In this document: piece by piece, positions 1,415 through 33,800 of the stretch
Position numbering within the stretch: the first letter of the stretch is position 1
Layout: each line of letters opens with the position of its first letter
Assembly: GCA_000442015.1 (NCBI GenBank)
Contig: KE561067.1
Location: 62,001-109,740, forward strand
Source of the DNA: Rozella allomycis CSF55
Taxonomy: Eukaryota
DNA length: 47,740 bases
Reading direction: 5' to 3'
Made by a program: the position numbers and the translations under genes
The notes under the pieces: model-generated
What the model saw: the letters and a program-made list of their open reading frames with translations, nothing else
Told to the model about the DNA's origin: nothing
The model's database searches: none

Positions 1415-2889
1415 TTATTTCAGTTTTTTGACTAGCTCGACTAATACCACCTTATTATCCGGGGACTTTAAATCAAGTGATATTTGAATTTACAACTAGG
1501 GAGAGCTCAATAATAATATATATAAACTCGACCACCAAGCACGCTTTACAATCATTGTTGGAATATACTATTATTTTTTCAAAAGCTTCACGATAATTTT
1601 CAAATGCTTCTGCGGACACCTGTTCTTATAAATATCTTAAAAGTTACAATCAAAGGGTACCTGAGCAATAAATTAACCGAAGCAAGTCTCGCTAGTCTAC
1701 CCAAAGAGAGATCAGTGATAGCCAAAGCCGTCATAAATTCGAAAATCAAGCTAGCCTCTTCGAATGTAATTCTTTCAATTTTACTCAAATGAAACAGAAA
1801 TTCCAAATCGATATTGTCGTATCCATTTAAAATCAGCTGCCGTGAAAAGTTTAGAATACAACTTTACTGTATAAAAGGATCTAACAAAACTGAAATGGAA
1901 AGATTGGAATGCGTAACAAGTGTAAGAATCATTCTGATTAACACATTACGCAAGATATCGCTCTTATGATATTCCACTAATGAAAATATTAAATGCTTGT
2001 AGCACTGAACTGCAAACAGAGGCTTGTTATGAAGCAAAGTCTCGCATAAATCAGAAAGATATAGAAAGGAAAGCATTTTATCACCGACCGATTTTTGGCC
2101 TCGAAGCTGCATCAATGAAAACTATGATACATACTCTAAGAATTCTATTAATTAGAATGTTGAATTGTTCTTCTGTTACAGAGAGATGTAGAATCATTTG
2201 ATATGCCAAGAAACTCTTTTCATCGAGGCTAGATTCTTATTCACTTCAGGCCTTATTGTTACTCGAAGAAAATTCAATGATGTTTAAAACATTTTGTTGA
2301 AAAAAATTAACGAGTTCAATATCGTCATTGTTCACTTCAAATAGTATATGTTGTCTTACCTGTGCTAATTCAACAAAGGCGTACTCATCATTTTGTAGAA
2401 TTTTTAAGAAATAGTTCAACATATTTGAGTTATAGGTATCTGATCTATAGATTGCTATTAGTAAAGAGCTCAATGTCTTATATTTGATCCTCTTTTCATA
2501 ATCCGTGATTTGGGGGATATAGATATCCTGGATCCTCATTTATTTCTATCTTCCGATTTACCATGTTTTTATGTATTCATCATTAAAATTCTGTGATTTA
2601 AGTAGTTTTAGGATAACCTGATGGGTCAAATGCAATATTTCATCATTTTTGTTGTCTTGTGTAATGGAGGATAATATCGTTAAGGAATCTATTCTGTCTT
2701 GAATCGTTTCTTTATTAAAAAATGTAAGTAGATCGTCTGACTCGAGAATAAGATTTAGCCATTTTGAAAGTTTATCTATAAATTAGCTGGCGAAAATCTA
2801 CCACAATCATTTGATAAGTCACTAATTTCTTTAACCTTACTCACTTTTAAAGCGGTTCTATTTAAATACTGCTTGCTGGTTTTTGTCAT
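1415..2889 (-). CDS. Uncharacterised alpha-helical protein with 6-8 ultra-short introns, including an apparent GT-CG intron at 1841-1867
   Basis: One continuous frame after removing 26-28 nt introns. Contains the block YKHLIFSLVEYH..SVLLDPFIQQLILNGYDNIDLEFL. Start uncertain (ATG 2889 or 2915). Confidence 0.6.
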
Positions 2890-2996
2890 AATGTTGTGAG
2901 GTAGTTAGTTACCATTTACTATCAAAGCATGAATGAAGAAGAATCTTTTTCTACAAAAAAGTAAAAACTTTATTCTTTATTTTTAAAATGTTGTTC

Positions 2997-3446
2997 TCAC
3001 AAAATCTTACAGGAAATGTAGATTATTGAATAAAGAAGAAGAGTAGGAAGAAATGTTTTTACAACTGACAATTTGTCAATAAAGGTACCAAAGAAAAACA
3101 TCTTCAACGCTATTTTCAAGACATCAATAAATCCTAATTCTTTGCCATTAATTGCATACAAAACATGATGGTGACAGTTGCACGTAATCAAGTTGTGCAT
3201 TCTAGATCCGAAAATCTGGTTGCTAATTTCTATGTTGGAATCCCACTCAGTTTCTTCATTTTTTTCTATGTGATATTGTAGGTAGCGAGTAGGCGCCCCG
3301 AATGCTAAATTCCCTCTCCCGATATGAAAGGGGCCTGCAAAGTCAAATACAGTTCCGGTCGAGTCGGTAATTCCAACATGACCTATAACTGGCAACATGT
3401 AAGTTAATATTGGTATAGGTGTCCATACGATACAAAAAGGCCTCAT
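2997..3446 (-). CDS. TMEM222: TMEM222/RTE1-like (DUF778) membrane protein
   Basis: PFCIVWTPIP..LPVIGHVGI..G..FDFAGP, LAFG.PTRY and HNLITCNCHHHV motifs; intronless. Confidence 0.9.
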   Translation of the reverse strand: MRPFCIVWTPIPILTYMLPVIGHVGITDSTGTVFDFAGPFHIGRGNLAFGAPTRYLQYHIEKNEETEWDSNIEISNQIFGSRMHNLITCNCHHHVLYAINGKELGFIDVLKIALKMFFFGTFIDKLSVVKTFLPTLLLYSIIYISCKIL

Positions 3447-3491
3447 CAAGCTTTTATCTTCTTTTACGTAGTTTTGGACCCTTGCTATAAA

Positions 3492-4559: not shown

Positions 4560-4892
4560 ATGCATTTATAATAAAAGAATTTATCTTATATTTAATATTC
4601 ATTCTATTTTGGTAAGCATTTGAATAGAATATTGCGCCTGCTTGAGTTGACTTTAATGCATTTACTTGAACAATTTCTTCTTCAATGCTATCAACAATCA
4701 AGTTGATGTCAGTTTCATTCTGTGAAACAGGATCATACAGGGATTGGACCAAGTAGTCCATTCGTGATGTGTTCAACAAGTAACACTGTCGGTGAGATAG
4801 CATGTTCTTAAAGTTTGAACTTATCACTTTGATTTTTATAAATTACATTAAAGCCTCGGGTGGTTTGTCCCTTTTGTTGATCGTCATCTAGT

Positions 4893-5496: not shown

Positions 5497-5501
5497 TACG
5501 T

Positions 5502-6845: not shown

Positions 6846-6971
6846 ACTTTTTTATGTTATCCAGAATTTCCATACATTCTTTTACGGTCAATAATTTGTA
6901 GGAACAAACAAGATAGACATACAATCAATAGGAAAAATATATAATTTATTACCCTAAAATCATATAAAACG

Positions 6972-7838
6972 TCACAAAATAACTCTACCATCCACCCTAG
7001 GATCTTCTAGCAAAATGCTGACAACTTCATTTCGGATTTTCTTGAAAGCATTGCGAAGAGCGTAATTGTTACAGGCACTGGGATCTACTCTAGAATCTTT
7101 CAGTAAAGTTTTAACAACTTCCACATGACCATTTTCAGCAGCCCATCGAATAGCAGCATTGTTAGACGAACTTGGATCTACTCTAGAATCTTTTAGCAAA
7201 ATCTTAACAACTTCCACGTGACCATAATCTGCAGCATATCTAATAGCACGATTGTCGCAAGCACTTGGATCTACTCTAGAATCTTCTAGCAATATTTTAA
7301 CAACTTCCACGAGGCCATTTTCGGCTGCACATCGAATACAATCATTTTGACAGGCACTTGGATCCACCCTAGAATCTTTAAGCAAAATATTAACAACCTC
7401 TACATGACCATTAGAGGCAGCACATCGAATACAATCATTATCACAGGCACTTGGATCTACTCTAGAATCTTTCAGCAAAATTTTGACAAATTCCGCGTGG
7501 CCGTATCTGGCAGCATATCGAATGGTACCATTGTCGTAAGCACCTGGATCTACTCTGGAATCTTCAAGCAACATTGTAAAAACTTCAACGTGGCCATATT
7601 CGGCCGCATATGTTAAAGCACCATTGTCGAAAGCACTGGGATCTACCCTTAAATCACTCAGCAAAATCTTAACAACTTCAACATGGTCATCAGACATGGC
7701 GTTTCGAATAGCACCATTGTCGCACGCACTTGGATCTACGCTAGAATCTGCAAGCAAAATTTTAACAACTTCCACATGACCATATTCAGCAGCATATCTA
7801 ATAGCATCATTGTCGCAAGCACTTGGATCTACTCTAGA
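6972..7838 (-). CDS. Ankyrin-repeat protein, about 8 tandem 34-aa (102-bp) units; 5' end lost at N7839
   Basis: Repeating DSRVDPSACDNxAIRYAAxxGHVEVVKILLE; intronless. Confidence 0.92.
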   Translation of the reverse strand, partial: SRVDPSACDNDAIRYAAEYGHVEVVKILLADSSVDPSACDNGAIRNAMSDDHVEVVKILLSDLRVDPSAFDNGALTYAAEYGHVEVFTMLLEDSRVDPGAYDNGTIRYAARYGHAEFVKILLKDSRVDPSACDNDCIRCAASNGHVEVVNILLKDSRVDPSACQNDCIRCAAENGLVEVVKILLEDSRVDPSACDNRAIRYAADYGHVEVVKILLKDSRVDPSSSNNAAIRWAAENGHVEVVKTLLKDSRVDPSACNNYALRNAFKKIRNEVVSILLEDPRVDGRVIL

Positions 7839-7839
7839 N

Positions 7840-7914
7840 ACCAAATTTGAATTAATTATGGCCTGCATTGGTATTTTGATTGACATGATAGAGGTGTTGC
7901 AAAAGGAAATTTGA
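7840..7914 (+). repeat. 3' fragment of small capsid-linked ORF, copy 3
   Basis: TKFELIMACIGILIDMIEVLQKEI* matches TKFEEIMVWIGILIDKIKMLQK* of copy 2. Confidence 0.7.
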
Positions 7915-8019
7915 GGACCGCGGTAGAGTGCCAAGTCCAATTTACCGTGAACGGTAGCCCTTCGTAGCTTAAAGAGATTATAGAGAGTATGAAACAAAGA
8001 CAGTAAATAAAATGCACTT

Positions 8020-9076
8020 TTATGGAGGTGTGAGATTATCAACATTCACTTTGAGTCCTTGAATATAATTGTCCAAGTCGTTGTGAAATGAGATTGTCGA
8101 ACCAAAATTGTTCAACAGCTGATTCATTTCTTTGAAGGCGTTCTCAATTCTCTGCTGCAGTCTCCATTCTTCAAGTGATTCAAGTAAAACCTATTCCTTC
8201 ATTTCTCTGTCCAGTCTGATATTAATCCAAGGGTAATTAAACTCACCGCTCCCATTGTAAAATTGTTCCAGGATATCATTCTTGGTGGAATTTTGTTGGC
8301 TCTCAATGCGTAAGTCTACAATCATTGGTCTTCCCTGCACTTGTCCACAATTTGTCTCAGAATGCGTGAGATCAAATCCAGCTGAAGCAGCGCTTTGCTG
8401 CTTGCAGAGTCCTTTGTCAACCTTGATAGCAAATCCTGTTGACATTCTTTAGTCGCAATGTACATAGTTCTCTTGGTGCCATGATAAGGGATGATAAAGT
8501 GAGGCTCGGGACTCATTCCAATGCAATGAAAAGTTTGTAGATGAAAGGTTCTTTTTCATCTAGTACACGTGTACTTTGAAGGTTGCTCTCTGTTGGGCCA
8601 TGTTGGTGAGTTTTGATGTAGTGGCTATTTGTTTGAGTTCCATCACTTACATCACAGACAATCCAGCCTGGACTCCATTTCTCTTGACTCTTGGGATAAA
8701 ACTTGATGTCCAATGAACCCTACTCATTTCCACACTTCACATGGCGAACGAGAAAGGGTATCTTGAATCACTTCAGTATTTGCGTCCAAATACAGCAAAT
8801 ACAGTGCGATTTTAAGGAGGAGAGTTTTGTAGATTTCAAAGCGTTCTTTGGTTTGAATGACAAATCCAGACTCTCTCAGCCATTTAGACAGAGCCAATCC
8901 AGCATCGGCCATCTCGATTCGGATTACACCTCTCATTCTGGGGATGCTGTTTCCTATTTCAACAAACTTGTTCTATTTCCAGAGGTTGTTTTTTTGCAAG
9001 GGTCTTAGTATAGGGTTTCCGATAGAAATCGGAGATTTTGCAATGCGTTTTATTAAAGTATTTTGTTGGAGCATGA
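8020..9076 (-). pseudogene. Disrupted atypical (PI3K/PI4K-like fold) kinase-like gene
   Basis: Joined frames give YIKTHQHGPT...DEKEPFIYKL..IGMSPEPHFIIPYHG..TMYIAT...LDLISRIL...NCGQV.GRPMIVD, with several stops and frameshifts; intronless. Confidence 0.55.
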
Positions 9077-10147: not shown

Positions 10148-10168
10148 TTTCAGGCAGAAAATTTCTGA

Positions 10169-12079: not shown

Positions 12080-12732
12080 TTATTTAAAATTAATACTTTC
12101 AATTATCAAGGAATAGAATTCTAAAACTTTTTGCACTGTGGTTTACCTTTTTGCCAATTATTTTCAATGCAGTTCGCACAGAGTAGACTAACACCAGATT
12201 TTCCTACCATTTCATATACTTGATGGCCACTTATCGCAGGAAAATCACTTTTGTTATTTAAGAATCTAGAATATACTTTCTTTGTTCTTACATTATATGT
12301 TTCTTGCGATGCTTAGCTAAAAAACCATCCAACTGTTGGTAATGGAATCTGGATTCTTGCCACTCTTGACTGTCGAAAGAATTGCTCACCATAAAGACTA
12401 CTACATCAACCTTTTCAGTTATATTTCAAGGTACTCAATGTTACTTCATTGTAGTAATGAATCCATAACTTGTTCTTGGGGGTACTAGATCCCCCAACTT
12501 CGAACAACAGTAAACCTTGTGTACCGTTTTCATCATTAATTGATATTTTCTCCATTGAAATCCCGAAAGTTGGAAGAAAGGTTGTATTTTTCCATTTTGA
12601 AGATTTTAGTCGATTTATCGCGCAAGTTTTCCCCGCTTTCGTTAAACCCACAAATAGGCACTTTATTTCCTTTGGTTTCAGAGGGAAAACTTTAACAGTG
12701 TGGCTGAATCTTGGACAACAAGCGTTTGGCAT
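12080..12732 (-). CDS. Arf-like small GTPase with ARL15-like features (3 introns)
   Basis: GLTKAGKT (G1), PTFG (G2), EVGG (G3), WIHYY and NKSD (G4); N-terminal Cys-Cys. Confidence 0.8.
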
Positions 12733-13335: not shown

Positions 13336-14087
13336 TTAATATTCTTTTGTAATTATTTTTGTTTCCTCTGCAATAAATATTTTTGATGCCATGCCTATAA
13401 AAAGTCCGGTTTCAATAACGCCCGGGATTTTTGATATTTCTTGATTCAGTTTCACGACATCAATATTATCTTCATTAATGTGTAAATCTATTATAATGTT
13501 CCCGTTGTCTGTTATTATTGGACCTGCCTTGTGGACAGCTTGCCTAACTATGGCCGAGCACTTAGGTAATAATTTTATTAACTTATTGCTGACAACTGAC
13601 TGCGCTTTGGTATGCACTTCTATTGGCAATCCCTTTTTCCACTTTTTTGATTTCATTAATATGTTACTCTTTCAAAAATGCGATTGCTCAACTTTGAGGA
13701 GTCTGCAACTATAATCAACTCTTCGCTAGAATATGCTATTATTTTTTCCATAAGTAAGGCACCTCTTTAAAAAAATATATCATTGATTTACCCTCCCCCT
13801 TTTATCAAGATATTGTTATTCAAAACAATTTCATCCGCCCCATCAAAAGTTATATCAATGTTGGGATATTGGACTAGATCGCCAACTTTTAAATTGTTAG
13901 ACACTAGCAAATCTCGTGCCTGGAAAGATGTTGGTATAAAAATTAGGCCTTTATTGTCTAATCGTGCAAACTCATTTACAACATGGATGACAGTACTTCC
14001 TGACCCTATTCCAATAATGCTATGCTTCTCTCTATCAAAGCATAATTTTACTGCCGCCTCTGCAGCATTTCTTTTCTCGACATCCAT
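13336..14087 (-). CDS. RKI1: Ribose-5-phosphate isomerase A (2 introns)
   Basis: IGIGSGST, PTSFQ, DGADE, IKGGGGALLMEK, KAGPIITDNGN and IPGVIETGLF. Confidence 0.96.
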
Positions 14088-14132
14088 TAATAGAATTTCG
14101 TAAAAGTACAAAAACTTGAACACAAAGCGTAG

Positions 14133-15128
14133 ATGAAAGATCGAAGTTCTGAATTTTTCGCTGCAATAGAATCACAAAAACAGAGAATATCACCTAATAT
14201 TTCAGAGCCGCTTAATCGAAATAGGCATCAGGCGTCGGCTTTTGCACAAATGGCTGGGCAAATAGGGAAAGAAATAGCTTTTGTTTCAACTAAATTAGAG
14301 AAGTTTGCTATTCGTAAGCAATTTATTAAATTAACGAATAGTTGTGAGGAATAAAAGTTCATTCGAAGATAGATCCGCAGAAATCCAAGAATTAACTTCC
14401 ACTGTGAAACAAGACATTGCAAGATTAAATCAACAAATTGCAGCTCTTCAAAGTTATCAGAAGGGACAAGGGAAAGCACCAAACGATCAATACGAACAGC
14501 ATCATTCATCTATGGTGGTCTCATTGCAATCCAAATTAGCATCAACATCTTCCACATTTACTGATATTCTAGAGCAACGAACAATAGTACTGATGCATAT
14601 ATTTGTTGACATAGTCAATGAAAGGGCAAAGGGAAAGACGGTCACAGTTTACCTCACCCAACGACATGTTTTCTCAGCGTAAAGCTCAATTCGCCTTTTA
14701 ATTAAGCGTTAAGCCGAAGGTCTCAAAGCGAAGATTTAGTGATTGACATGGGTGAGGCGGCGTCATTTCAACAGACTCAACTTGTTCAGCAGGTACCGAT
14801 TCTATGCTTCTCAAAAAGGCACGTTCGAATCAATATTTAGAAGCACGGTCGGAAGCTNATATAGAATCAACTATTGCAGAGCTGGGAGGAATATTTCAGC
14901 AGCTGTCAAGGATGGTCATGGAACAAGGCGATACAGTGCAAAGGTAACATTAATTTGTAACCGAAGATAAGAATCGACGCGGACATTGAAAATATGCAAT
15001 TCAATGTTCAACAGGGTGAACAACAATTATTGAGATATTTACAAAATATTTCATCCAACAGATGGCTAATGTTTCGAATTTTTGCAATCATAATTCTATT
15101 CTTTGTTTTATTTGTATCATTTTCATAA
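14133..15128 (+). CDS. SED5: Syntaxin-5/Sed5 Qa-SNARE (5 introns; N at 14858)
   Basis: N-terminal KDRSSEF motif, FEDRSAEIQELT..KQD, SNARE IESTIAELGGIFQQL..MV.EQG..VQRID, SSNRWL and a C-terminal TM helix. Confidence 0.95.
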
Positions 15129-15135
15129 ATATGTT

Positions 15136-15867
15136 TTAAACCAAAGCTTTACTGTAATATCTAGCTCTAAACCTTTCTCGTCCGACGTGTAATAATTTCG
15201 CGAATAAAAACACAAAAGTAGCCAATATAATCATCAAAAAGTAGTTCAATGCTGCTTCTGGAATTGTCGGGTTTAAGATTTTGTACACATACCATTTCGA
15301 ATTAGATCTTGACCGAAAGGTTTCACTAGCTATTAAGAACCACCCAAAATAAAGCAACAAAATCGCGTAATGAAAAATAATATGAGTCAGCTTAAACACA
15401 TGTCTATTAAAAAGAAAATCAATAAATATGAAAGCAAGACCAACCCCGTGAACGCTAATGTCAACCCACAATTCAGCACTATTCATACCGCTTGGCTTAG
15501 CTATAAACCCCCAATAAACAATAACCACCATAATAGCTTGGCTGAGCAAAGTTTCGTACCAGATATTCATTAGAAGCGCAAAGTGCGACAAATCATATAA
15601 AGTACTCTTGTTGTATCTGTAGGCAAGGGTATAGCCAACAGAGATTATGAAATAAAATGTTAATCCGACGAAAGAAGCATGCGTCAAATAAAAAAACCAC
15701 CGGCCTTCATTCCAGTGAAATATTAGACTACAAACTAAAGCCGAGCCACAGTATAACACAAAAAATATGCGAAAAAGCAACAACTGCTTGTCTGATATTA
15801 TCTGACTTTTCGATATATTGGATTGTGTCAATGGTTTAAGTTGAAATATCGTTCTAATTTTTTGCAT
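15136..15867 (-). CDS. FAR-17a/AIG1/rolling-stone-like multipass membrane protein, paralog 1
   Basis: FFYLTH..F, VYWG, VHG and WYVY.ILN motifs; intronless. Confidence 0.8.
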   Translation of the reverse strand: MQKIRTIFQLKPLTQSNISKSQIISDKQLLLFRIFFVLYCGSALVCSLIFHWNEGRWFFYLTHASFVGLTFYFIISVGYTLAYRYNKSTLYDLSHFALLMNIWYETLLSQAIMVVIVYWGFIAKPSGMNSAELWVDISVHGVGLAFIFIDFLFNRHVFKLTHIIFHYAILLLYFGWFLIASETFRSRSNSKWYVYKILNPTIPEAALNYFLMIILATFVFLFAKLLHVGRERFRARYYSKALV

Positions 15868-15934
15868 GTGGCACAGCAAAGAAATGAGCCACGTATGAAT
15901 CGGCCTTCTAAATGAAATATGCTTAAATAATTAT

Positions 15935-16736
15935 TTATTTCCTGTATTTGTCTCTTATTCTATGTAAAAAATATGAGAACACATATAAAAGTAAAAAACC
16001 ACAGAAAAGTTTGAGATACCACACGTGAGCGTTTGGAGCTTCCAAGTTCAAAAATCCGTAAACCCAGAACCTGTCTCCGTGATGATTTGTGAGAAACAAA
16101 CTAAGAATCCATGCTAGACACACATATAAAAATATAATCAAAATGAAAAATATGATGTGAGCAAAGAAGAAAGTGAAATTGTTGATATATGCGTCTATGA
16201 AAATCAAGGCAGTATCTAGGCCATGTACACTAATATTTAGCCACATTTCGACTCCGTCTCCGTTTTCACTTGATCTAAGGAACAGCCAATGCGTGATTGG
16301 CACCACAAGATGAAGAACGAATAAACTTTCATACCAAATGTTAACCAACAACGATTTTAATGTCACAATATCATAATCAACATTTTTCAACTTGACAGTG
16401 TAAAACAAAGTGGTCTAATATGTCAATATAAGTGGGTTTCTTACCAAAAAGTACATTGTTAAACTGGCATGGCTTATGTTCGTTAGAAAAACAAACCAAT
16501 AACCATCGTTAAAACTAAATACTAGAGTTGATATTAAAACAACTGAGGAATATAACGCCAGTATTGACTTTATCATTATAACAATTTTTGGGTTTATCTT
16601 CCTCATACACCGCAATCGATTTGTAGACAAAGGACTCAAACTCAATCTAAAATTAAGTGGGGTATTTTGCAGTATACGTTTTAGCAATTTGCAAGTTTTT
16701 ATCAGGATTGTGTACAGCGTTTAAATCCATTCCCAT
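15935..16736 (-). CDS. FAR-17a/AIG1/rolling-stone-like membrane protein, paralog 2 (2 introns)
   Basis: WFVFLTN, SVHG and FWVYGFLN motifs; introns of 31 and 30 nt. Confidence 0.8.
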
Positions 16737-17059
16737 TTACTTTTTTGTGGCTGAGTCTGTGAAAGAGTTTTTGGCCGTGGTATATTGAGAGGCTTTAGAA
16801 ATATCATATTCTTTTTTTAAAGAGTTAGCTTCAAAATTATATATTTGTTATTAAATTGTTGTTTAAGCGTAGTAATGATAATTATTATATATTCATGAAA
16901 TAGAAATATATTTGTCCGCTAGAAAAGAATTTAAGATGATTAACTTGACCATGATGAAAGCAAAAAGGGTAAATTGATTTTGATTACTATTTAATGACTC
17001 AAGTGGCTCCTCTCAAACTTTAGGCCTTAAATCTTAATTAAGTTAGATATATATTGGGT

Positions 17060-17884: not shown

Positions 17885-17951
17885 TTGTTTATTTACATTT
17901 TAGTATTACCTAAGTAAATAAACTAAAAATCTTTTACTCTGTGGCTTTGTA

Positions 17952-19901: not shown

Positions 19902-19960
19902 AGCGTGACAAATTAAATATCTTTATTTTTTTAAATTAGCGATATTTTAGTGATTGTTAA

Positions 19961-20974
19961 TCAATGGCACGAGGTTTGTTTGTCGGCTTCTGCCACCTTG
20001 TAACGTCCAAACACAAAGAATCCAGTCACGGCGCCAACGATTATTGCCGTACATAAAAATCCATTATATGTCATAAATACCATCATTAAGAAGAAAGCAT
20101 AAAACGTATGGACACCATGCAGTAGGGATCTTATCGCCTGTTGCTTCCATGACCACGGACAAGAGTCGCATGAATTGTTTCTCTAAAACCAAAGAAATAT
20201 ATGATACTTGATGTTATTATCATACATGCGCCTCAGTAACCCAAACGCCTCAAATAGCACCGCTAAAAGAAGAATTGCAATGGTAGAGACGGCAAGTGAA
20301 GTATCAGAATGTACTGTCCACCACTCAAAGAAAACATTGTCAATTCTTGAATCCCAGTTCCAATACATCTAAATGGAGTGGAATCCAGGACTTTACTTTC
20401 ATCATGTGTTCCATGGGCATGTTTTGACTGTTATCTTCCATGCCATGATCCATTACGGCTTTCTTTCCNTTGTTTGTCGGCTTCTGCCACCTTGTAACGT
20501 CCAAACACAAAGAATCCAGTCACGGCGCCAACGATTATTGCCGTACATAAAAATCCATTATATGTCATAAATACCATCATTAAGAAGAAAGCATAAAACG
20601 TATGGACACCATGCAGTAGGGATCTTATCGCCTGTTGCTTCCATGACCACGGACAAGAGTCGCATGAATTGTTTCTCTACAACCAAAGAAATATATGATA
20701 CTTGATGTTATTATCATACATGCGCCTCAGTAACCCAAACGCCTCAAATAGCACCGCTAAAAGAAGAATTGCAATGGTAGAGACGGCAAGTGAAGTATCA
20801 GAATGTACTGTCCACCACTCAAAGAAAACATTGTCAATTCTTGAATCCCAGTTCCAATACATCTAAATGGAGTGGAATCCAGGACTTTACTTTCATCATG
20901 TGTTCCATGGGCATGTTTTGACTGTTATCTTCCATGCCATGATCCATTACGGCTTTCTTTCCTCCACAACACAT
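19961..20974 (-). CDS. Ctr copper transporter; one gene represented twice across contig join N20469
   Basis: Met/His-rich N-terminus, MYWNW, MMVFMTYNG (MxxxM), GAVTG and C-terminal SCH. The left copy lacks the start and the right copy lacks the stop. Confidence 0.9.
19976..20962. other. Assembly overlap of about 494 nt duplicated around N20469
   Basis: Near-identical copies abut the N; one substitution seen, in an intron. Confidence 0.85.
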
Positions 20975-21072
20975 TTTCCTCTTTTGGAGGGGCGCAGTAA
21001 ATAATAACGATTCTAGATTGAAAAAGATAATAAGTAGAATGCCAAAAATCTATTTTATTTATCAAAAATTCT

Positions 21073-21714
21073 TTATGTAGTTCCGTGAACCTTTTTTAAA
21101 TGTACATTCAGAGCACTTTTTTGTGTAAATCTTCTGTCACACTGCGTACAAGGGTATGGCCTTTCACCTACTTTGAATGGAACGCCAAATTTACCTGTAT
21201 GAGTTCTCAAATGAGCAACTAAATATGGTCTCTTTGCGAATCTTTGTTCACAACCTGGATGTGTGCATTTAAACCGGCGTTCGTTAGCATGTGTTCTTAA
21301 ATGAGCTAACAATTGCGATTTCCTAACACCTCTAAAGTCACACCCTTGATAATAGCATTTCAATGAATTGATGTTTTCATTAGTGAATAGGCTATATTGA
21401 TATCGTGATTGATCAATATCTGATTGATTGTTATGTGAGATATCTCTAGTTATCTCATTTAATCTTTCCATTATTTTGGATAAGGAAAAAGATATTTCAC
21501 CCAGCCAAATCCTATTTTCATTGTCTATTGTTGTTATCGTTTCTACTAGCGAAGACGTTAGAGAACTATACATTGTATTTATAGACTCCATAAATATAGG
21601 TGTTAGTGTGGACGAAGAATGGTCGATTTCACGTAGTAGCCTTCTGATAAACAAACGTGTTTGAGATTTATATTCTTGGATATTTGCAGAGTGATTATAG
21701 AGAGTGCTGTTCAT
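21073..21714 (-). CDS. C2H2 zinc-finger protein with 3 fingers (27-nt in-frame intron at 21168-21194)
   Basis: CxxxxC..HxxxH fingers; the HTGERPY linker is restored by splicing. Confidence 0.9.
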   Translation of the reverse strand: MNSTLYNHSANIQEYKSQTRLFIRRLLREIDHSSSTLTPIFMESINTMYSSLTSSLVETITTIDNENRIWLGEISFSLSKIMERLNEITRDISHNNQSDIDQSRYQYSLFTNENINSLKCYYQGCDFRGVRKSQLLAHLRTHANERRFKCTHPGCEQRFAKRPYLVAHLRTHTGKFGVPFKVGERPYPCTQCDRRFTQKSALNVHLKKVHGTT

Positions 21715-21987
21715 GGTCTCGAACGTGTATCCAAGTGTATAAAATGACCAGGGTTTATGTGTTCTAGACCATTAGTAGATCTTGAGAACTGGATAACCTG
21801 TGCGCCTATAAACTTACATAGACATAATCATATAATTTTTTAATAAGCGTGGCTACTTAAAATATATAAAACTATGGTCGTAGCGGCACATTATAAGCCA
21901 TAGATGGTGACTGTTTATTAATTCATTAAAAAACATAACTTAGCCTAATAAATTCATTTTATTGATTAGCAAAAATATTATTTATTG

Positions 21988-22972
21988 TTAATTTTGTTTG
22001 GTATGCATTTGTTGAGGCTGGGGAATCGCTGAATTTATCAATCTGAAAAGACTCTGAAGTAAAATAAGAGATTCATTAGCCAATGCGATTATTTGATGGG
22101 AATGCTTAACAAAACGCTTGGAATTATTTGATTCATCATATGATTCTGAAGTTATTGCACTCTTTTCGCGGTTAGAATAATTATGTTACCCATCGCCCAG
22201 GTAATGAGAGAACAAAAGAACGAATCATTGAATTAACAGTTTGGGGTAAAAAGGAAGAACAAGATGAAAGCATTTCTAATACTTTCGATAAAGTTTGCAC
22301 AATTTCTTGTTTCATTCTATTCGTAATCTGATGTACTCCGGCAAAAAATTCCTTGTTCGCTTGAATGAAAGCATCAGTCCACTCATCGAATGTAGTTTTT
22401 ATACTTATTTGGGCATCTGAAAATGCTGACCTAAGTGCGACAATGTTGTTATTGATTGTATCCTGTGATTCCTATATTTTATACAAATATTTTGTTTACC
22501 TGCAAGTAATCAAGGACACGGAATAGTTCCACGGACTGCTTTTCAAACTCTATTAATTATTTCAGTTCATTTACTTTATCCAGTTGTTTACAAGCAAATG
22601 AATCGAGATTGGAAGTTCCTATGGTTTTTAAAACTGGTTGACAAACATATTTCATGCCGGATTCTACTCTTTCAGCACCATACTATGACTGAGTAGATCT
22701 TTTCTAATTACCTTGACAAAGGCACTATTGTTTTTAGACTGATTGTAAAATTGGCTAATGGAATGCACTAATGGATAAGTAGCGACTCTTGATAGAAAAG
22801 ATTCGTTTTCTTTTCGATTATGAGGTCCAAGTTGCCCTGGGGATGCAGGCCTTGTTGAGTTTGAGGATGTAGATAAACGAAATTCAACAGAGGAGCAAGG
22901 CGATAATTCTGAAGTTGAATCACAAGCTAGAGCTAGCAAATCAATTCCATTCATTTCGGAAAAGGCGTCCAT
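21988..22972 (-). CDS. OPI1: Opi1-family transcriptional repressor (4 introns)
   Basis: FLSRVATYPLV..YNQSK.NS.FVKYGAE.VES, FACKQLDK, LDYLQ, KQEIVQTL.KV, IRSFVLSLPGRW and ALANESL motifs. Start could be 22954, 22972 or 23014. Confidence 0.85.
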
Positions 22973-22983
22973 TAAACAATTGA

Positions 22984-22989
22984 CACGTG
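22984..22989. promoter_or_regulatory. CACGTG E-box just upstream of the OPI1 start codons
   Basis: Lies between the bHLH stop (23027) and OPI1 ATG 22972. Confidence 0.35.
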
Positions 22990-23026
22990 GCTGAGGTGAT
23001 ACAATCACAAGCATTGCATTGTATAT

Positions 23027-23620
23027 CTATGAAATAGAATTTATTGAATTCAATTCTGATAAAATACTTTCTAGGCATTTGGATCGTTCAATAAGCCACT
23101 TTACATAAACAACAGCTTTTAGTGAGGAAGACAGAAAAATTACTTTGAAATAATACTTTTGGTTTTGTTCGAGCGCCATGAAATCCTTCAAATGAGATCA
23201 GAGCAGATAATTGTTCATACGCCTCCTTGATATTCTTTCTTCGTCGTTTCTCGCTTTCTATATGACTTGCTCTTTTTGGAAATTTGTTGCGAGCCTTTTT
23301 ATTCACGGTAAATTGATGAGGATGACTAATATTGGGATTTGTTTGCACTCTTATTAACAATATCAATAGCTACCTTGTTCCAGTGAAACGAATGAAACTT
23401 TTTCTGGAATAGTACCGCGTGGAGACCTTTCAAACTCCTTTCCTGTGACTAATTTTAATTCTAGATTTTCTGCATCATGCTGATCTTGAGCGTTAATTGA
23501 GTAGTCAAGGTGAAGATAATCATTGCTTACAAAAAGATCATCGCATGATCTCATATCAATAATATTTTGCATAAACTCTGATAAAAAACATTGCTCTTGA
23601 GGTGAAAACAACTGCGACAT
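23027..23620 (-). CDS. Ino2/Ino4-like bHLH transcription factor (2 introns)
   Basis: RASHIESEKRRRKNIKEAYEQLSALI...KPKVLFQTVVYVKWL; N-terminal LFSPQEQCFLSEFM helix. Confidence 0.8.
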
Positions 23621-23635
23621 GGATGGCTGAAATTA

Positions 23636-23706
23636 CACGTGAAATTGAAATTTCCAGTCCAATGTTGTCATATTCAATCTGATATAGATTTATTGAAATT
23701 CACGTG
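23636..23706. promoter_or_regulatory. Two inverted UASINO/ICRE-like E-boxes upstream of the bHLH gene (CACGTGAAAT at 23636-23645 on +; CACGTGAATT at 23697-23706 on -)
   Basis: One and two mismatches respectively to the yeast UASINO consensus CATGTGAAAT. Confidence 0.5.
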
Positions 23707-23945
23707 GTAAGCACAATTAGGTTTTGGGAATGTGCTTGTTAATGCCTATTCCTTTGCTGAGCCAATATTTTAGCAAAAAATACCAACGAATATTTGCTAA
23801 ATTACTGAATCGATGACTTCATTTTTACCATTTAGATTTAGTATTTGTTTAATGTTTAAAATAAAATATTGCCCTTGTTGCACCGCGGAATTAATAAAAT
23901 CAATGTTTTTAATTGAATTTGTAAATTTCGATTGGTTGATTATCC

Positions 23946-25156
23946 ATGAGGTTCAAGTCTGCAGTGATTGGAGCAGGGCCTACCGGCATTTGCGCAGTAG
24001 GACATTTGTTAGATTTAAGGCTGTACCCGATTCTTTGGATTGATCCTTGTTTCAATTCGGGTCGGCTATCAAGCTATGAAAATGTAAAATGCAATTTCTG
24101 TGTGAATAGGTTCCAAGCAATACTAAAGTAAAACTATTCATAGAGTTTGCCTTAAATTGCAACACTTTCAAAGAGATAGCAAGTCAAAATGATGATGTTC
24201 TAAAGGCTCTGTTGGCAATGGATCAGGATTCTGGCTGTAATTTAAGTCTCGCAGTGGGCATGACAAATAAATTAACCCAAGGAATGCAAAATTTTCATTC
24301 AAAAAAGGTTACTATGATAAAAGGTACCAAACAATAACCACTGACAAAGGAAATGTCAGATCGATGAATTTTAGTGACATAGTAAGTTAATTTATACTTT
24401 TATTAAAAGTGGTGCATTGAACTCGAAGGATCTGGGGAAAAACACTATTCAGACTCAACTATTCTTGCAACTGGTTCTCAACCACGAGAATCACGCCAAT
24501 TCCCATCAGAAACTCAACATGAAATAATTCCTATTCATTTAGACGTTGCTCTTGATCCTGGAAGGCTAAGTCAGATAATAACCAAGGATGACAATGTGGC
24601 TGTTGTTGGGTCAAGCCATTCCGCCATTTTGGTCTTAAAAAACTTATCACAGAATACATCCTGCAAAAGCATTTTAAATTTTTATAGGGAAGAATTAAAA
24701 TTTGCAGAGTACAAAGATGGTTGGATCCTTTATGACAACACAGGCTTGAAGGGTCAGGCTGCAACGTGGGCCAGGAACGAATTGTCCAAGGTACAAAAAA
24801 TTAAAAGAATAAAACTTCCAAAAGAGAAGAACAAAGAAGAAGAAGTTTATTTGGCACATTTAAGAGGCTGCACAAAAATCATCTACGCAATTGGTTTCGA
24901 AAGGAATCCTTTGCCAATAATTTCAGTTAATGATAGAGTTTGTCGAGAAATAAGTTATAATTCTAAAAACGGGCAGATGAGCGATGAAAATGGACCATTG
25001 GATAACTGTTTTGGTTTCGGCATTGCATTTCCTGAGAAAACAATAGACCCTATGGGAAATGTGGAATACGCAGTTGGTTTATATAAATTTACTCGGTACA
25101 TGAAAAATATTTTCCCAGTCATATTTAAACCGCTTTTAGATAAATTGAATAAATAA
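23946..25156 (+). CDS. FAD-dependent pyridine nucleotide-disulfide oxidoreductase-like protein (3 introns)
   Basis: VIGAGPTG, VPSNTKV, ILATGS.P, VVGSSHSA, WILYDNTGLKG, YAIGF and FGFGIAFPE. Confidence 0.9.
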
Positions 25157-25201
25157 ACACTAAAAATATTCTTTTCACTTTACTCAGCCACTTTGTTTTT
25201 T

Positions 25202-26411
25202 ATGACCCAAGCGCATTCAGTTCTAGTCGGAATATCTTTAGGCACTTATTCTTGCTCTGTGAGTCATTTCAAGGATGGCCACCCTGAAATCATCCCAAAT
25301 GAAGATGGCGATCGTTTTATTCCTTCCGTTATTACATTTACAGAAGATACTATAGTAAATTAATATTCCATTTTTAAAATAGCTTGTAGGGACCCAAGCA
25401 AAAATCCAAGCGTTTAAAAATCCAAGAACTACGATATGTGATTTTATTGGAGTTCCATTCGTCGACTTTGAAAAAAACAAATCCTTTGACAAGGAGAGTG
25501 AAAAGTTCGAATTAGGAGAAAATTTTTACTCTTTTAAAGAGCTTTTGAGAATATATTTATCGACCTTGAAAGTTTCAGCTGAAACTTACCTCGGAAACAC
25601 AATTACCGGGGTTGTCTTGTCTATTCCGTTTTCTTTGTCTAAAGAAGAGCGACTGGTTTATTTAGATGCTGCAAAAGAAGCTTCACTTAATGTCATTCAG
25701 CTACTTGATGACTCATCTAGTTCAATGTACCACGTCATAAACAAATATGCTCCAGAAAAGAATGAAGTGAAGGCGTTAGTTGTGGATATTGGTTATTCTA
25801 GCTTGAAATTAAGCACTTTTCACTCAAAAGATGGTTTACTTGTAACTCCATCTCAAATCCAACACACGGATTTTGGGTCGTCAAGTTTGACAAGGGTATT
25901 ATATAACCATTTTTCAACTGAATTTAAAAGGAAAACCGGGATTGACATTAATGATTACAAGAAGTCTGTGATAAAAATGAAGAATGCAATAGAGAAAACT
26001 AAAATGTCTTTGTCAAATGCTGATGTTTCCAATTGCTTTGTTGAATCATTGGCGGAGGGTGTTGACTTTTCGTCAACTATCAATAGAAATAAATTCGAAT
26101 TCATGTCAGAGTCGTTTTTTAACGGCTTCAAAACTGCTATCGTGCAATCCCTGAACTCTTTTCCTGTAGATATGGTAATATTGACTGGAGCTTCTGCAAG
26201 AATTCCAAAAATTCAATTAATAGCCAAGAATATTTGTGCTAGTGCTACTGTTATTGTTTCACCTGAACCAGAAGCGGACAGCGTGAATGGCGCAGCCACT
26301 CAAGCTCAATTGTTCAAAAATCTCTTTGATTTTCAATTTAAAGAAGATGACGTACTCGGATTAAATGAAGAAGAATGCATTTTGGAAAATGGGTTATATA
26401 AAATCAAATAA
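25202..26411 (+). CDS. SSZ1: Atypical Hsp70 (Ssz1/HSPA14-like), nucleotide-binding domain only (1 intron)
   Basis: VGISLG, PNEDGDRFIPS, VGTQAK, VVDIG, FVESLAEGVDFSSTINR and GASARIPKIQ; ends shortly after the NBD. Confidence 0.8.
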
Positions 26412-26446
26412 ACGTGTCATTAGTAATTTTCACATTTAGTTTTTCA

Positions 26447-27899
26447 ATGTGGATAATCTTTTTTATCCTTATCATGGTTATCCTGCTTGGAAGACTCTTC
26501 AGGACTAAGAAGGTCGTCTTTTTCCATCCCTTTTGTATGTCGTTTGGTGGTGGTGAACGTGTTTTGTATACGTGGATGAAGTTTTTGAAAAATGATAAAG
26601 AAATAATGATTTTAACCGGAGAGAAATCAATAGATATAATGAAAATCAGGGTAAGTTTTTACCTTGTTGAAAATAGGAACGATTTGATATTGATTTGTTN
26701 AATAGGAACGTTTTGATATTGATTTGTTAAACTACCCGATAAAAGTTGTTTCATTGCACACAAGAAGATTATTGGATCCCCTCTTGTAATAATTTATGAT
26801 GATAGTCACAGATTTCCTATAGCAACTTTATTTTTCCAAATTTTAGGTTCTTTAATCATAGGTTTGGATTGTTGCGCCAAATTACTTTTCAAAAGTCCTG
26901 AAGTTCTAGTAGATACAACGGGGTGCGCTTTCATCTACCCAATAATTAAATTGTTCCTTGGTTGTAAAATTGTATCCTACGTACATTACCCTTTCATAAG
27001 GTAAAAATTGGTTGGTAAAATGAGAGTTCCGATATGCTTCAAATGGTTTCAAAAAGGGAATCAAATTATAACAACAAAAATTATATCACTAATAACAGTG
27101 CATTGACACAAGTTAAACTATATTACTACAAAATTCTATCTTTTGTATATTGTCTATGTGGTTCATTTGCTGATGAAATCCTCGTGAACTCAACGTGGAC
27201 ACACAATCATATCATCGAATTATGGCAAAACCCCGAAAAGACTCACATTGTTTACCCCCCATGCGGCATTGAAAAACTAATAAACATTGATATAGTAAAG
27301 CCAAGAAATCCTATAATACTATCTATCGGGCAATTTAGGTATTATTTTGATAAAATTTAAATAAGAAAGGAAAAGAACCATCAGTTGCAAATAGAGGCCT
27401 TTGCAAAATCTAATGCCAGGTCTACGCATAGGTTGATATTAGTCGGCGGTTGCAGGAATGAAGAAGATTATAGTCGCGTCTGTGAGTTAAAATCATTAGC
27501 GAACATTTTAAATGTATCAGAGAGAGTAGAATTTAAAGTGAACGTGAGCTTTGATGAACTGTACAATCTCCTTACCCTTGCAGACATTGGAATTCATACA
27601 ATGCAAGATGAGCATTTTGGAATATGCGTTGTTGAATACATGGTATACTTTGCATAAATACAATTTAGGCTGCGGGTCTTATTCCCATCGCTCATAACTC
27701 AGGTGGCCCCAAATTGGACATTGTCGATGAAAAATGTGGATTTTTAGCTAAAAATGCTGAAGAATATTCGAATTCTATTAATGCCATCCTTTCAATGTCA
27801 ATTAGGAAAAAGCAAATGTACCGAGAAAACGCACGATTGAAGATTGAGCAAACTTTTTCAGAAAGTCAATTCGCCAATAATATAGAATGCTTATTTTAA
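26447..27899 (+). CDS. ALG11: Alpha-1,2-mannosyltransferase Alg11 (5 introns; N26700 overlap)
   Basis: FFHPFC..GGGERVL, YVHYP.ISSDML, NSTWT.NHI, VYPPC, EHFGICVVEYMAAG and HNSGGPKLDIV. Confidence 0.95.
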
Positions 27900-27971
27900 T
27901 AGTAAATATACTTGTTTATGGCAATTTTTGTTATTTTTTCTTTTAATACGCTTGGTGTGGCTAGGTTTAAA

Positions 27972-29304
<1,333 letters not shown>

Positions 29305-29505
29305 AAATAAAAAAACTTTTCTGCATTTTAGCAATAACAATGAATGCCAACCATGCATTATCAGGCTTCAGCTAATGTTCACTAGAACCGACGTATCCTA
29401 CGAAGCGAAAACTTCAAAATAGACCAAAATGCATATTATTTTGCTAGAGAATTTATTGCCTTCTCTGTAAATGACTGATAAATGCATTGCCTTGTCTATC
29501 GAATA

Positions 29506-30563
29506 CTAGTTTGTGTATGGTTCAAGTGTTTTCATCGCTGTAGAATATGCAAAGAATGTAACCGCGTTAGTTGGAAATGCTCTCACTATCGTTGCATTTA
29601 GTCCTCTAAAGAAAAAGTTTATGCCATGATTCTTATAATGATCCTTAAAAACAGCCCATGTATTTCTATAACGAAAAGGTTGATCGAAATGTTCCGACTG
29701 CATGACTGTCTTTACTACGTCAAACGGATAAGTTGTTATCCAACTGCAAATACCCGCCATTCCACCTGCAAACATTAAAAGCATTGGATTTAACTGAGAT
29801 GAGTCTCCGTCTTTCGAAAGTTTTCTGCAAATGTACTCGTAAGATGAAAAATAGGCACCGTAACTTGGCGTTTCACGTAAAATAGTAGCCGATATTCCTC
29901 TAAAACATCCTCGAAACCCTTTAACGCGATAGATTCTAGACAAACAATTAAATGTCCCTTTATATGCATTTCTGTCTCCTTTTTTGACTTGATTCTGAAG
30001 CTGAATTTTGGCTAATTCTGTTGGCCCAGAAATGATGCTGTTCAAAAATCCTGATCCAGCACCGGCAACAAAAATTTGCTCTAAAGAAGGTTTCCTTTCA
30101 TTTCACTATAAAGTTATTACTCTTTGGGATCATTTAATTGGTAATTTAGGATAGATCCATAGACTCCAAAAAGGAATGAGTTGACAAGAGTCACACCAAT
30201 CATTGGCGCTGATATTCCTTTTAAAAGACCTAGAGCCAAAAAATGAAAATAAATCGTTTTACTGATTCTTCTTTGACAATCGTTTTAAAACAATGAATGG
30301 TTCCTTTATACTTTGGGTTTACAACATCTTGACTCTGTAAACGGACCTATTAGATAAGATAAAAAGTATTTAAGTATTTACTTTGACGGTATCAAAAGGT
30401 TGACCTGCTAATACACCTCCAAGACCTTTCATTAGGATATTGCATTGTTACCGGCGAATGTTCCAGAAATAAAGTTAGCTATGCTTGGATGAATGAATCC
30501 TTGTACATTGTAATCATCAGTTGGATTAATTTGCCCCGTATCTAAATTTGATGAATCTGCCAT
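29506..30563 (-). CDS. Mitochondrial carrier, SLC25A29/45 / Ymc-like (4 introns; GT-TG intron at 30237-30262)
   Basis: Three Px[DE]xxK repeats (PFDTVKVRLQ, PTELAKIQLQ, PFDVVKT); RETPSYG and RAFPTN. Confidence 0.92.
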
Positions 30564-30826
30564 TCTCCAATTAGCATTCACTTTAGGTTTTATGGGCCTT
30601 GACCAGGCTTGACAAAAATAGAACGCATGTTTTATGAGATGAACTTCAGTTCAAAAATTAAAGGCATTATCGTGCAGTGACATATATATATATATAGCGG
30701 AATTTGATGCACGAAATGGGGGCTTTAGGAATTCAACTTGAAGTTCAATTATCTAGACCATGCAAGTTCAAAGGGGATTCAACATTAAGCGTATAATAAT
30801 TGTTAAAGAAGAAATTTAAACTAAAT

Positions 30827-33800
30827 TTATTTTTGAATTGGCTGCAGATTATTTAATATCAGAGTGGCTAATGCAGAACCAATTACAAAGTTGCCTTCAT
30901 TTGTTATGTCCTTTAAAGTTGAAATTAAGGTAGAATCACACGGAAAATTTGGATTTTGCCATTGTTCAGCCATTTTTAGTAAAAGTTTTAGTAAATTGAT
31001 TCTAATATTTGGATGATTCTTAAGTTTGTTAATTTTCCCGATGAAAGACTCAATAACGGAAGGAATTGTCAATGAGAAACATATGTCTCTTGAGTCTGTT
31101 ATTAATTTAAACAAAGAGTTGGTTATTGATTCTAAACTCAACGTCGCATAATTGCACAAATCTATTAGAAAAGTTAGGTTTTCATTCAACAGCAACGTTT
31201 TCTCCACATAATCCCTATCTTCATTGAACCAAGAGCAAATGGCTTCTAAAGAATTTGGAGCCCAATATTCATCTTCAAGCATTCCAATTAGAAACAAAAG
31301 CAAATCATTTTCCTTTAAAAGTGGTCGACATTGGCTAGTTCGGGCCATTTCACAAAGAATTGGAATTGTTAGCGATTTTCTACTTCCACCTCCAACAAAA
31401 GTTAGTTTCATTAATTCAGGAATTACATTATTGGATGTAAATCTAAAAATTCTGCTAGAGTTTAACCTGAAGAGCTTTAGGCCAATCAACAAGGCTTGAT
31501 TTTTTATTTCCTCTTATAAAAAACAATAATTCTGTACACTTATAAACGCATAATTTGGCTCCTTTAAACAATCCGCCAGAATCTCAATGTAGTCCAAATG
31601 TTCCAGTAAAGGATGTGAAATTTCCAAATCACATATGTTCCTAAGTACTTTAATCCAGAGAAGAATGTGTTGGTTGCTTAGTTCATAGAATAGTAATTGA
31701 AAATCTATTTATTACGAAACCATATATCATACTAAATAATACAGCATTCGTGCAGAACTTTTCTTTAGTACCATGATCTGCATTTGACAAAAGCAATAAT
31801 ATTGATAAAGCATCCTTGCATATTCCTTGTGATATTTCATCATCCTTAATGCTAAAATCATTTATTATTTCAATAAATCGAAGAATGTGCTGTTCACAGG
31901 ACAATATCCTACAAATGTCATTTTTAGAGAAATGGTGTTTGAAAAGGTTGCCAATGCAGAAAATGCATCGTGCGATAACGCCACGATCGGATGAATTCAA
32001 AACATCTAACATGACTTTTACCCCATCACAGGCAACAAATGTTGCAACTATTTCTTTAAATGAACAAATAATTTCAAGTGAAATGGAAAATGTTTCTAAA
32101 CATTCGTAAAATGGGAATCTTAAAANACATTCGTAAAATGGGAACCTTAAAAGAATAGGAATTCCTCCTAATTTTGAAAACTTGTCGATGTATTCAAAAT
32201 CCTTTCTAACAATCAAAAATTAAAATAATATTATTATATTACTTGATTAAATAAGTTCAAAACGTGTTCTGATCTATAATGTTCCAGGGCCTGGATAAAG
32301 TCAAAATAACCTTTAGATTTGATAAACGGTAAACGGGCTATTGGATACTTTCTAATCCCAGAAACCTAAATAATAATAAGCCAAATATAATACCAAATTT
32401 TCACAGTGCAACTTTATTTGACTTTGTTCATATCGTCCACATTGTAAAAGGGAATCCCAAGACATCTCCAGCCATTTTATTTCTTCTCTTTCTTCAATTG
32501 GCACTACTATGAAATCTTTAGACTCAAGCCTAATTAATTCCAACTCTGCCAGGTCATCAATTGAATCTGCAATCGATACTTTCATTTTGCTTATTTTTAA
32601 ATCCGCGTCATCATTTAGCTTAAATGCCAAATTATAATCTTCATTTTCATCCTCAATAGTAGAAGAAAAATTTATTTTATTAGGCGGACTGGAATTTTCA
32701 TTCTTAGACCCTTGCACAAATTTCAGTAACGTGGAAGCGTCCACGTCATCCCAATCGTCATCATCTCCTTTTATATCGCCTATCATACTAACGTTTTCAT
32801 CGATTAGTGACGATTGGACTATTTGTTTGGATACGTACTCCCCCTTTCGAACCACAGAACCCTCAGCAAATTCGCTATCATCGATAGAATTCACAAATTC
32901 ATCCAAGTGGCCCATGGCTGATTCAAAGTTTTCTTCATCATTAAGCATATGCTATATTTTTCGATTAAGATTATAGAATACCTTTTCATGGCCTTTTGTA
33001 ATCCATGGGTGACGTAGAAGCTTTGAGGCACTCACCCGCAAATTGACATCCTTTTGGAAAGTAAGCATCAGAAAATCTTTAAGAGCCTAAGTTTTAATCA
33101 ATTGGCATTTTGCTACATTAGATATTCCGTCTGGAAGCGGTGGATGCTCATCATTAACGATGCGATACAATGCTGCCATTGGAGACAGATGAAAGTATGG
33201 AGGTTGGCCTTGAATTAATTCAATAGTAGTGCAACCAACACTCCATATATCCGACCCAGTGTTAACACCTGATAATTCAATGACTTCAGGTGCCACTTAA
33301 TTTGATAGTATTTAGCTTTATTACTCCAATAAGGCGAGCCTATTATCATCGAGTCGTCTTGAGTGTCACTAAATCCCACGCTGACACCAAAATCTGCTAG
33401 TTTCACCCGACCATCTTTTGTCGTCAATATATTGGCTCCTTTTATATCTCTATGAATAACTCCTTGGTCGTGGAGAAAACAAAGCCCTTTAAGAACTTGC
33501 GATATATAAAAGCTAACCAATGATTCAGGAATTTTTCCAAACTTTTTACAAATTGTTACCAATGAACCATTTTCGCATAGCCTAACAATCAAAAAATGGC
33601 TCTTTACTCTAACATTATATTCAAGTATCCGTCTTCTTCTGAAGACCCGATATATTCCACAATGTTGTCATGTTTGAGCCGTTTTAACAACTCTATTTCA
33701 GCCTGTTCTAAAGCGTTAATGTTATTACTCTGATAGCTTCCAACTCTGATTTCTTCATGCTTTCGCATTTAACTTGTTTAATCGCTATACAGTTTCCCGT

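Follow-up and report, generated by a model that had tools for sequence, protein, structure and literature searches.

Candidate mini-introns ending in TG, and perhaps CG, in genes of Rozella allomycis

Does every intron of Rozella allomycis end in AG? The question is raised by a stretch of 47,740 nucleotides (nt) of strain CSF55 (GenBank assembly GCA_000442015.1, contig KE561067.1, positions 62,001–109,740 of the forward strand), here called the window, whose numbering is used throughout. An initial annotation, made from the letters of this DNA, had singled out four very short introns with TG or CG ends. All four stretches lie where it placed them, begin with GTA and measure 26–29 nt, three ending in TG and one in CG. 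They are GTAAGC…TTATG in an MPS1/TTK-like kinase gene (27 nt, 19339–19365, plus strand; GTAAGCAACTCTTTTGTCTAATTTATG), GTAAAA…TTTTTG in the gene of a mitochondrial carnitine/acylcarnitine-type carrier (26 nt, 30237–30262, minus strand; GTAAAACGATTTATTTTCATTTTTTG), GTAATA…TTTTTG in a CDC15/MAP3K-epsilon-like kinase gene (29 nt, 32214–32242, minus strand; GTAATATAATAATATTATTTTAATTTTTG) and GTAAAG…TCACG in the gene of a helical protein (27 nt, 1841–1867, minus strand; GTAAAGTTGTATTCTAAACTTTTCACG). Judged from sequence, they are probably ordinary major-spliceosome mini-introns in which U (or C) stands in for the penultimate A and which would still be removed at U/C-G.

The evidence that carries this reading comes from homology. 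For each junction we generated every stop-free in-frame deletion with a donor within about 25–45 nt and a length of 0 or 12–74 nt, and scored the variant proteins against profiles made from non-Rozella relatives alone. Six canonical introns of the MPS1, carrier and CDC15 genes behaved as expected of controls: the modelled GT–AG pair was the best GT–AG option and lay 0–1.2 bits from the best variant. At the level of these predicted proteins, a gapless alignment of MPS1, carrier and CDC15 with their relatives was obtained only when exactly 27, 26 and 29 nt, respectively, were taken out at these places.

That the frame is restored only with a non-AG acceptor, as had been claimed for all four junctions, holds strictly for the carrier alone; the MPS1, CDC15 and 1841 genes each have an in-frame GT–AG alternative. 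In the carrier gene (modelled at 29506–30563, minus strand, with four introns of 26, 35, 26 and 26 nt), the reading frames differ on the two sides of 30237–30262, the next AG lies 7 nt downstream and gives a 33-nt version that meets a stop, and no stop-free in-frame GT–AG option was present within 25 nt among 1,041 variants. From 108 non-Rozella proteins, the 66 with 250–347 amino acids (aa) were made into a profile. Against it the GT…TG model scored 403.6 bits (best of 948 variants, 405.6), whereas the public models EPZ33349.1 and RKP20915.1 reached 362.5 and 357.5 bits, a deficit of 41–46 bits relative to the TG model. The sequence …EEKVTGLYKG… of relatives stands opposite …EESALGLLKG… in the TG model, gapless, whereas EPZ33349.1, which uses a 44-nt GT–AG intron, loses the conserved segment YKGTIHCFKTIVKEE and translates what would be the real intron as ISKTIYFHFL. 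Metagenomic carrier relatives (80 loci kept, at 28–55% identity) are of no help for Rozella here: the 13 examined are mostly unsplit, and the sole clear shared intron (locus L003, 34 nt) is GT–AG.

In the CDC15-like gene (30827–33937, minus strand; a kinase domain followed by a C-terminal helical region), the in-frame canonical alternative removes 41 nt (32202–32242). A full HMMER search with the public Rozella model P0111 as query gave 149 relatives, and 42 of these span the junction. Against the profile built from the 42, the 29-nt TG model scored 66.8 bits and the 41-nt AG model 51.7; across 622 variants, GT…TG scored 67.4, the best variant 69.1 and the best GT–AG 52.6. The TG margin over the 41-nt version is 14.8–15.3 bits. 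The consensus 'vLkvvnqiieddeeiqenlclvGgipv' covers the TG-model protein without a gap, with 'nqiiedd' on NQIVRKD, and the 41-nt model requires a four-residue deletion against it. Pfam searches with the exons flanking the junction returned nothing usable, and a word-based search with the CDC15 exon among longer proteins retrieved the Rozella model P0111 alone. P0111 additionally omits further stretches that are found in the reading of the window. The gene start at 33937 is provisional: it comes from the first gene-finder pass only, and the N-terminal translation is unlike P0111, which is partial and begins further in.

The intron of the MPS1-like gene (17952–19901, plus strand, spliced gene-finder model) contains an in-frame TAA, with the same frame open on both sides. 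Its next AG, 13 nt downstream, would give an out-of-frame 40-nt intron, and an in-frame GT–AG alternative of 54 nt spans 19325–19378. With a profile of the kinase domains of 126 of the 149 CDC15-type relatives, GT…TG scored 128.7 bits, the best of 829 variants 132.1 and the best GT–AG option, the 54-nt one, 114.4, leaving the TG model 14.3 bits ahead. The exon downstream of the TG can be aligned with human TTK from residue 2 of the exon onward (ITAVKSLH on LEAVHTIH, E = 2.6e-14), and Pfam Pkinase matches positions 3–75 in exon 1 and 107–160 in exon 3, which leaves 76–106 for the 34-aa exon 2. Measured in TTK chain numbering between the anchored parts, the TG model has 4 residues more than TTK and the 54-nt model 5 fewer; length is therefore indecisive, and it is the residue match that decides. 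A search of the Protein Data Bank (PDB) with the 34-aa exon 2 gave no matches at E up to 10.

The opposing possibility is that canonical GT–AG introns are the real ones (41 nt in CDC15, 54 nt in MPS1 and in the 1841 gene, 44 nt in the carrier) and that the proteins carry deletions. All of these are in frame and stop-free, the public carrier and CDC15 models use them, and they demand no new biology. We nevertheless hold this to be unlikely. The canonical versions lose 14–15 bits in MPS1 and CDC15 and 41 bits in the carrier against the homologue profiles; the 54-nt option in MPS1 cuts away part of a helix that is aligned residue by residue to TTK; the public carrier model drops a conserved stretch and translates GTAAAA…TTTTTG; and lengths of 41–54 nt are outliers among the introns of the window, where only 1 of the 86 AG introns described below exceeds 35 nt and is itself doubtful. 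Simple extension to the next downstream AG (13 nt further on in MPS1, 7 nt in the carrier, 8 nt in CDC15 and 4 nt in the CG candidate) would give introns of 40 nt in MPS1, 33 nt in the carrier, 37 nt in CDC15 and 31 nt in the 1841 gene, and in frame displays read by eye none of the four continues the upstream frame openly. The expectation that gene predictors miss such introns was borne out, as neither of the public carrier models, nor the public CDC15 model, splices at the TG. If the TG reading is right, public models are wrong at two loci: at 29506–30563 EPZ33349.1 and RKP20915.1 both place a 44-nt intron in conserved coding sequence, so that the carrier loses a conserved segment and has intron translated into protein, and at 30827–33937 the CDC15 model loses four residues at conserved positions.

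Could the bases themselves be wrong? Contigs from four runs were compared with the window over positions 14000–33999, a range that does not include position 1841. A contig of run X1 covering 18145–19918 has five differences, all placed outside the MPS1 intron; it is identical there, and the MPS1 TG therefore stands in independent reads. The X1 contigs at 29431–31393 (nine differences) and 32191–33999 (four differences) have no gaps, so that in X1 a mistaken insertion or deletion can be ruled out at the introns of the carrier and CDC15. Of the proposed check on genomic bases, these contigs cover base identity for MPS1 and freedom from indels for the carrier and CDC15. For the carrier, both public proteins read …FHFLALG…, that is TTT TTG GCT, and the TTG therefore stands in two annotated assemblies. 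The 198-aa carrier exon is 99% identical to an R. allomycis protein whose cluster holds RKP20915.1 and EPZ33349.1 (CSF55); where these two differ, the window translation agrees with EPZ33349.1. Inside the putative intron RKP20915.1 has R and K where EPZ33349.1 has S and T. We infer that TCA has become TCC, which would be silent in the true frame, and that position 7 of the intron has changed from C to A, with GT intact, although AGT to AGA or AGG would equally give the R.

An assembly or sequencing error, with AG as the true bases or a nearby indel feigning a frame problem, is in our estimate very unlikely. The window does hold nine single Ns, some flanked by duplicated 27–29 nt, and it differs from X1 and X2 contigs at about 0.3–0.5% of bases; set against this are the identity of X1 at the MPS1 intron, its gapless contigs at the other two TG introns, the TTG read by two separately annotated assemblies, and the position of all four introns away from any N. 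The N at 32126 lies between near-identical direct copies of about 25 nt; at the N at 28996, the translation repeats CSCFTCKN on either side of X; a further N is at 26700; and contigs of other runs are shorter by 29 nt at 26683 and by 27 nt at 28984. The duplications flanking Ns look like unresolved overlaps at scaffold joins, which would add false residues to gene models. The X1 and X2 differences often fall at the same positions (such as 14875, 14902, 14917 and 15761), which points to genuine variation between alleles or isolates, or to mistakes in the assembly of the window. One X2 contig joins 20186 to 20681 and omits 494 nt that contain the N at 20469; this is due either to a variant with a deletion or to a difference in assembly.

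If the bases are right, they might be lesions: recent A-to-T (or A-to-C) acceptor mutations in a cultured strain, in genes that are broken, leaky or mis-spliced by a normal spliceosome. Each site is indeed one base from AG, and a single strain is represented. Yet three or four like cases would have to have arisen within 48 kb, in otherwise intact conserved genes that include two cell-cycle kinases and have no other lesions in their exons, and the end triplets and flanks match ones that a spliceosome can use. We regard lesions as an improbable explanation.

To place the four cases among the introns of the window, we wrote a small gene finder based on dynamic programming, which combines log-odds for codons with matrices for donors and acceptors and a prior on length. 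The union of four settings gave 93 intron calls; 10 artefacts or superseded calls were removed and 8 were added by eye (two in a DHHC gene, two of 28 nt in a syntaxin-like gene and four others). The resulting curated set of 90 is our own construct rather than an RNA-checked annotation. Its lengths are 26 nt (30 introns), 27 nt (21), 28 nt (22), 29 nt (7), 30–35 nt (9) and 44 nt (1), so that the 27, 26, 29 and 27 nt of the four non-AG introns are modal, as had been stated, sharing the 26–29-nt class of 80 of the 90. The terminal dinucleotide is AG in 86, TG in three and CG in one, and the acceptor triplets are TAG (38), AAG (34), GAG (8), CAG (6), TTG (2), ATG (1) and ACG (1), in keeping with the earlier remark that AAG and GAG acceptors are common. 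A rate of a few percent of introns had been proposed, and 3–4 of 90 agrees with it (3.3–4.4%, 95% interval about 1–11%). Among the 71 introns of 26–29 nt examined for motifs, the donor is GTA in every one and A occupies +4 in 53; neither a clear branch motif nor a clear pyrimidine tract was found in them, again as described.

The same set speaks on how the 3' site is chosen. The initial annotation proposed that distance and the terminal G are the main determinants, a view that the AG introns contradict. The first AG whose G sits at least 26 nt from the 5' end is used by 85 of the 86, the exception being a doubtful 44-nt model, and five AG introns (12411–12444, 28373–28400, 28854–28884, 39919–39949 and 43970–43998) bypass a TG or CG at position 26–29 to take an AG 2–5 nt beyond. 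Distance and a terminal G are therefore insufficient, and AG is the main signal; TG and CG look like a fallback where no AG is close by. G is not depleted between position 26 and the AG used (12 of 98 sites, against 11.0 expected). The lower length limit appears hard: the shortest of the 90 curated introns measure 26 nt, and AGs ending at position 25 or before are repeatedly skipped.

Three gene-finder calls in the window were rejected: 6955–6988, with a TA end, fuses two genes; 37288–37314, with a CG end, gives way to a 30-nt CAG intron that fits the same frame; and a 41-nt intron in the syntaxin-like gene is really two 28-nt GT–AG introns. The 44-nt model (42829–42872, plus strand) adjoins a perfect 28-nt unit at 42801–42828 (GTATTA…TCTAG) and itself starts with a perfect 26-nt unit (GTAATA…CAAAG). 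Cutting 28 + 26 = 54 nt, and then a 29-nt GT–AG intron at 42907–42935, yields a more protein-like reading, GKTESIVDLLTKTGNHSQ/AIKICKEFG; the 54 nt could be two abutting introns or a single one. A PDB search with this IFT-like gene (about 42801–42935) gave no matches.

The CG case at 1841–1867 lies in a gene of no assigned family (1473–2889, minus strand, from the gene finder). The stretch contains an in-frame TAA, the 31-nt version ending at the next AG meets a stop, and the in-frame GT–AG alternative, GTTTTG…CAG, is 54 nt long. The gene finder picks the CG intron at non-AG penalties of −4 and −5.5 nats with a start penalty of −12, and loses it at −18. The flanking exons matched no Pfam family, and a word-based search of the upstream exon against longer proteins produced 16 candidates, not one of them with an E value of 0.1 or below. 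What had been called a conserved frame here is thus an open frame with no homologue or Pfam family found, and frame continuity is therefore the sole argument for this case, which we list as a candidate only. Reassignment of a stop codon, by which the 27-nt cases would simply be read through, was rejected because the standard code already yields long open reading frames (ORFs), of up to 824 aa; G+C content is 33–38% across most of the window.

Several points weigh against the interpretation of these stretches as introns with non-AG ends. The CG case clashes with the fallback rule, as an AG only 4 nt downstream would be passed over although AGs 5 nt downstream are used elsewhere, and we therefore place lower trust in it. 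The intron set is the output of our own gene finder with hand edits (10 removed, 8 added). A single strain is represented, and TG splicing is deduced from DNA and homology rather than seen in RNA; the RNA-labelled run X9 gave pieces of 21–36 nt at low likeness only and carries no weight on splicing. The sites of the nine and four X1 differences in the carrier and CDC15 contigs are not among the differences listed. A seventh control failed: at the fourth MPS1 intron, a 51-nt GT–AG option scored 139.0 bits and the modelled intron 128.7, which we attribute to an MPS1-type insert, presumably carried by TTK as well, that is penalized by the CDC15-type profile. Homology, moreover, sets the number of bases removed and not the exact borders: shifting the window by as much as about 7 nt leaves the score within 2–3 bits in the carrier, MPS1 and CDC15, and in MPS1 a large number of 27-nt windows have similar scores. 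The borders themselves were taken from the perfect GTAA donors exactly 26–29 nt upstream.

In the carrier, where homology resolves the borders to about ±7 nt, this latitude admits an intron with a non-canonical donor instead: GA…AG at 30230–30255 removes an equal 26 nt and scores 401.8 bits, 1.8 below the 403.6 of GT…TG. It would discard a perfect GTAAAA donor exactly 26 nt before the TG, in a set in which GTA is invariant (71 of 71), and would replace the conserved glycine of the carrier motif; MPS1 has no comparable option (TT…AG only). Of the explanations considered, we give a non-canonical donor the least credence.

As to class, all four putative introns have a U2-type donor of the GT/GTAA form (GTAAGC, GTAAAA, GTAATA and GTAAAG) and fit the length class; for MPS1, the carrier and CDC15 the protein aligns with relatives after removal, and the departure in all four is at the 3' AG (TG, TG, TG and CG). 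The U12-type or AT–AC class, known for non-GT–AG ends, was considered and rejected: the four share the GTAA type of donor with the other introns, and reading by eye showed neither the extended donor nor the branch motif of the U12 class. Two features mark the four. T occurs 4, 3, 5 and 4 times at positions −8 to −3, compared with 2.2 on average, and all four are preceded by an exon with A as its last base, against 26 of the 86 AG introns (one-sided Fisher p = 0.011; p = 0.032 for the three TG introns alone; both post hoc).

A possible mechanism can be outlined. The spliceosome would seek a 3' site from about 26 nt past the 5' splice site; an AG within a few bases would be taken first, and ligation would otherwise occur at a BG (non-AG) site, UUG, AUG or perhaps ACG, aided by U-rich sequence before the site and by an upstream exon that ends in A. 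In spliceosome structures the terminal G pairs with the first G of the intron and the A at −2 makes a contact of its own; the former pairing would be kept and the latter contact lost. Tolerance could stem from very short distances between branch and 3' site, or from altered second-step factors such as Prp18, Slu7 or Prp22.

The closest precedent is Saccharomyces cerevisiae without Prp18. A preprint reports that prp18-delta yeast uses BG 3' sites, most efficiently AUG, ACG, UGG and UUG, and that a preceding poly(U) tract and adenosines in the exon promote this use (bioRxiv 10.1101/2023.01.12.523824). In both organisms the terminal G is kept and the A at −2 replaced; the Rozella ends ATG, TTG, TTG and ACG all occur in the yeast set, and the Rozella sites are U-rich upstream and follow an exonic A, a comparison of four cases made post hoc. 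The difference is that the yeast sites are minor, alternative and mutant-dependent, whereas those of Rozella would be the sole productive junctions of wild-type genes. We give about even chances to the broader proposal that the wild-type Rozella spliceosome routinely ligates at UUG or AUG (perhaps ACG) in a few percent of its 26–29-nt introns, a constitutive counterpart of the loss of fidelity in prp18 mutants. Changed second-step factors or extremely short branch-to-3'-site distances may be involved, and the trait is possibly shared by other Rozellomycota.

Ciliates such as Stentor have tiny introns of a very narrow length class, and in that respect resemble Rozella, but theirs are known as GT–AG and the lineage is a different one. 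Microsporidia, the sister group, are a related lineage with miniature introns and reduced genomes; the passages available on their short introns report low splicing levels (PMC6349667), not non-AG ends, and Rozella differs in being intron-rich, with 2.5 introns per kb (PMC8476143). Median intron lengths in fungi are given as ranging from 29 to 197 bp, the species at 29 going unnamed (PMC8042348). Our literature survey found nothing on non-AG splice ends in Rozella, although the 2013 genome paper and its supplements lay beyond it and a mention there is possible, and no paper on Rozella with Prp18, Slu7 or U2AF. If confirmed by RNA, the finding would present a wild-type eukaryote that breaks the near-universal 3' AG rule at the percent level, and a natural system for the study of second-step 3' site proofreading beside the yeast work on Prp18 and Prp22. 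Were a rate of 3–4% to hold genome-wide, it would affect a sizeable share of the Rozella proteins on which phylogenomic work on early fungi and microsporidia draws.

Some further features of the window can be recorded. On the minus strand, 6972–8045 encodes about ten tandem 33-residue repeats, each of the form SRVDPSACDN…GHVEVVKILL and ankyrin-like by eye, with a TGA near 6975, and a similar repeat gene lies downstream. At 15136–17884, also on the minus strand, ORFs for paralogous multi-pass membrane proteins stand in a row (15136–15930, 15935–16414 and 17060–17539); the second and third are closely similar, and the ORF at 17540–17884 may belong to the same run. The sole Rfam or ARAGORN match within the window is a tRNA-Cys (GCA) at 47564–47637 on the plus strand.

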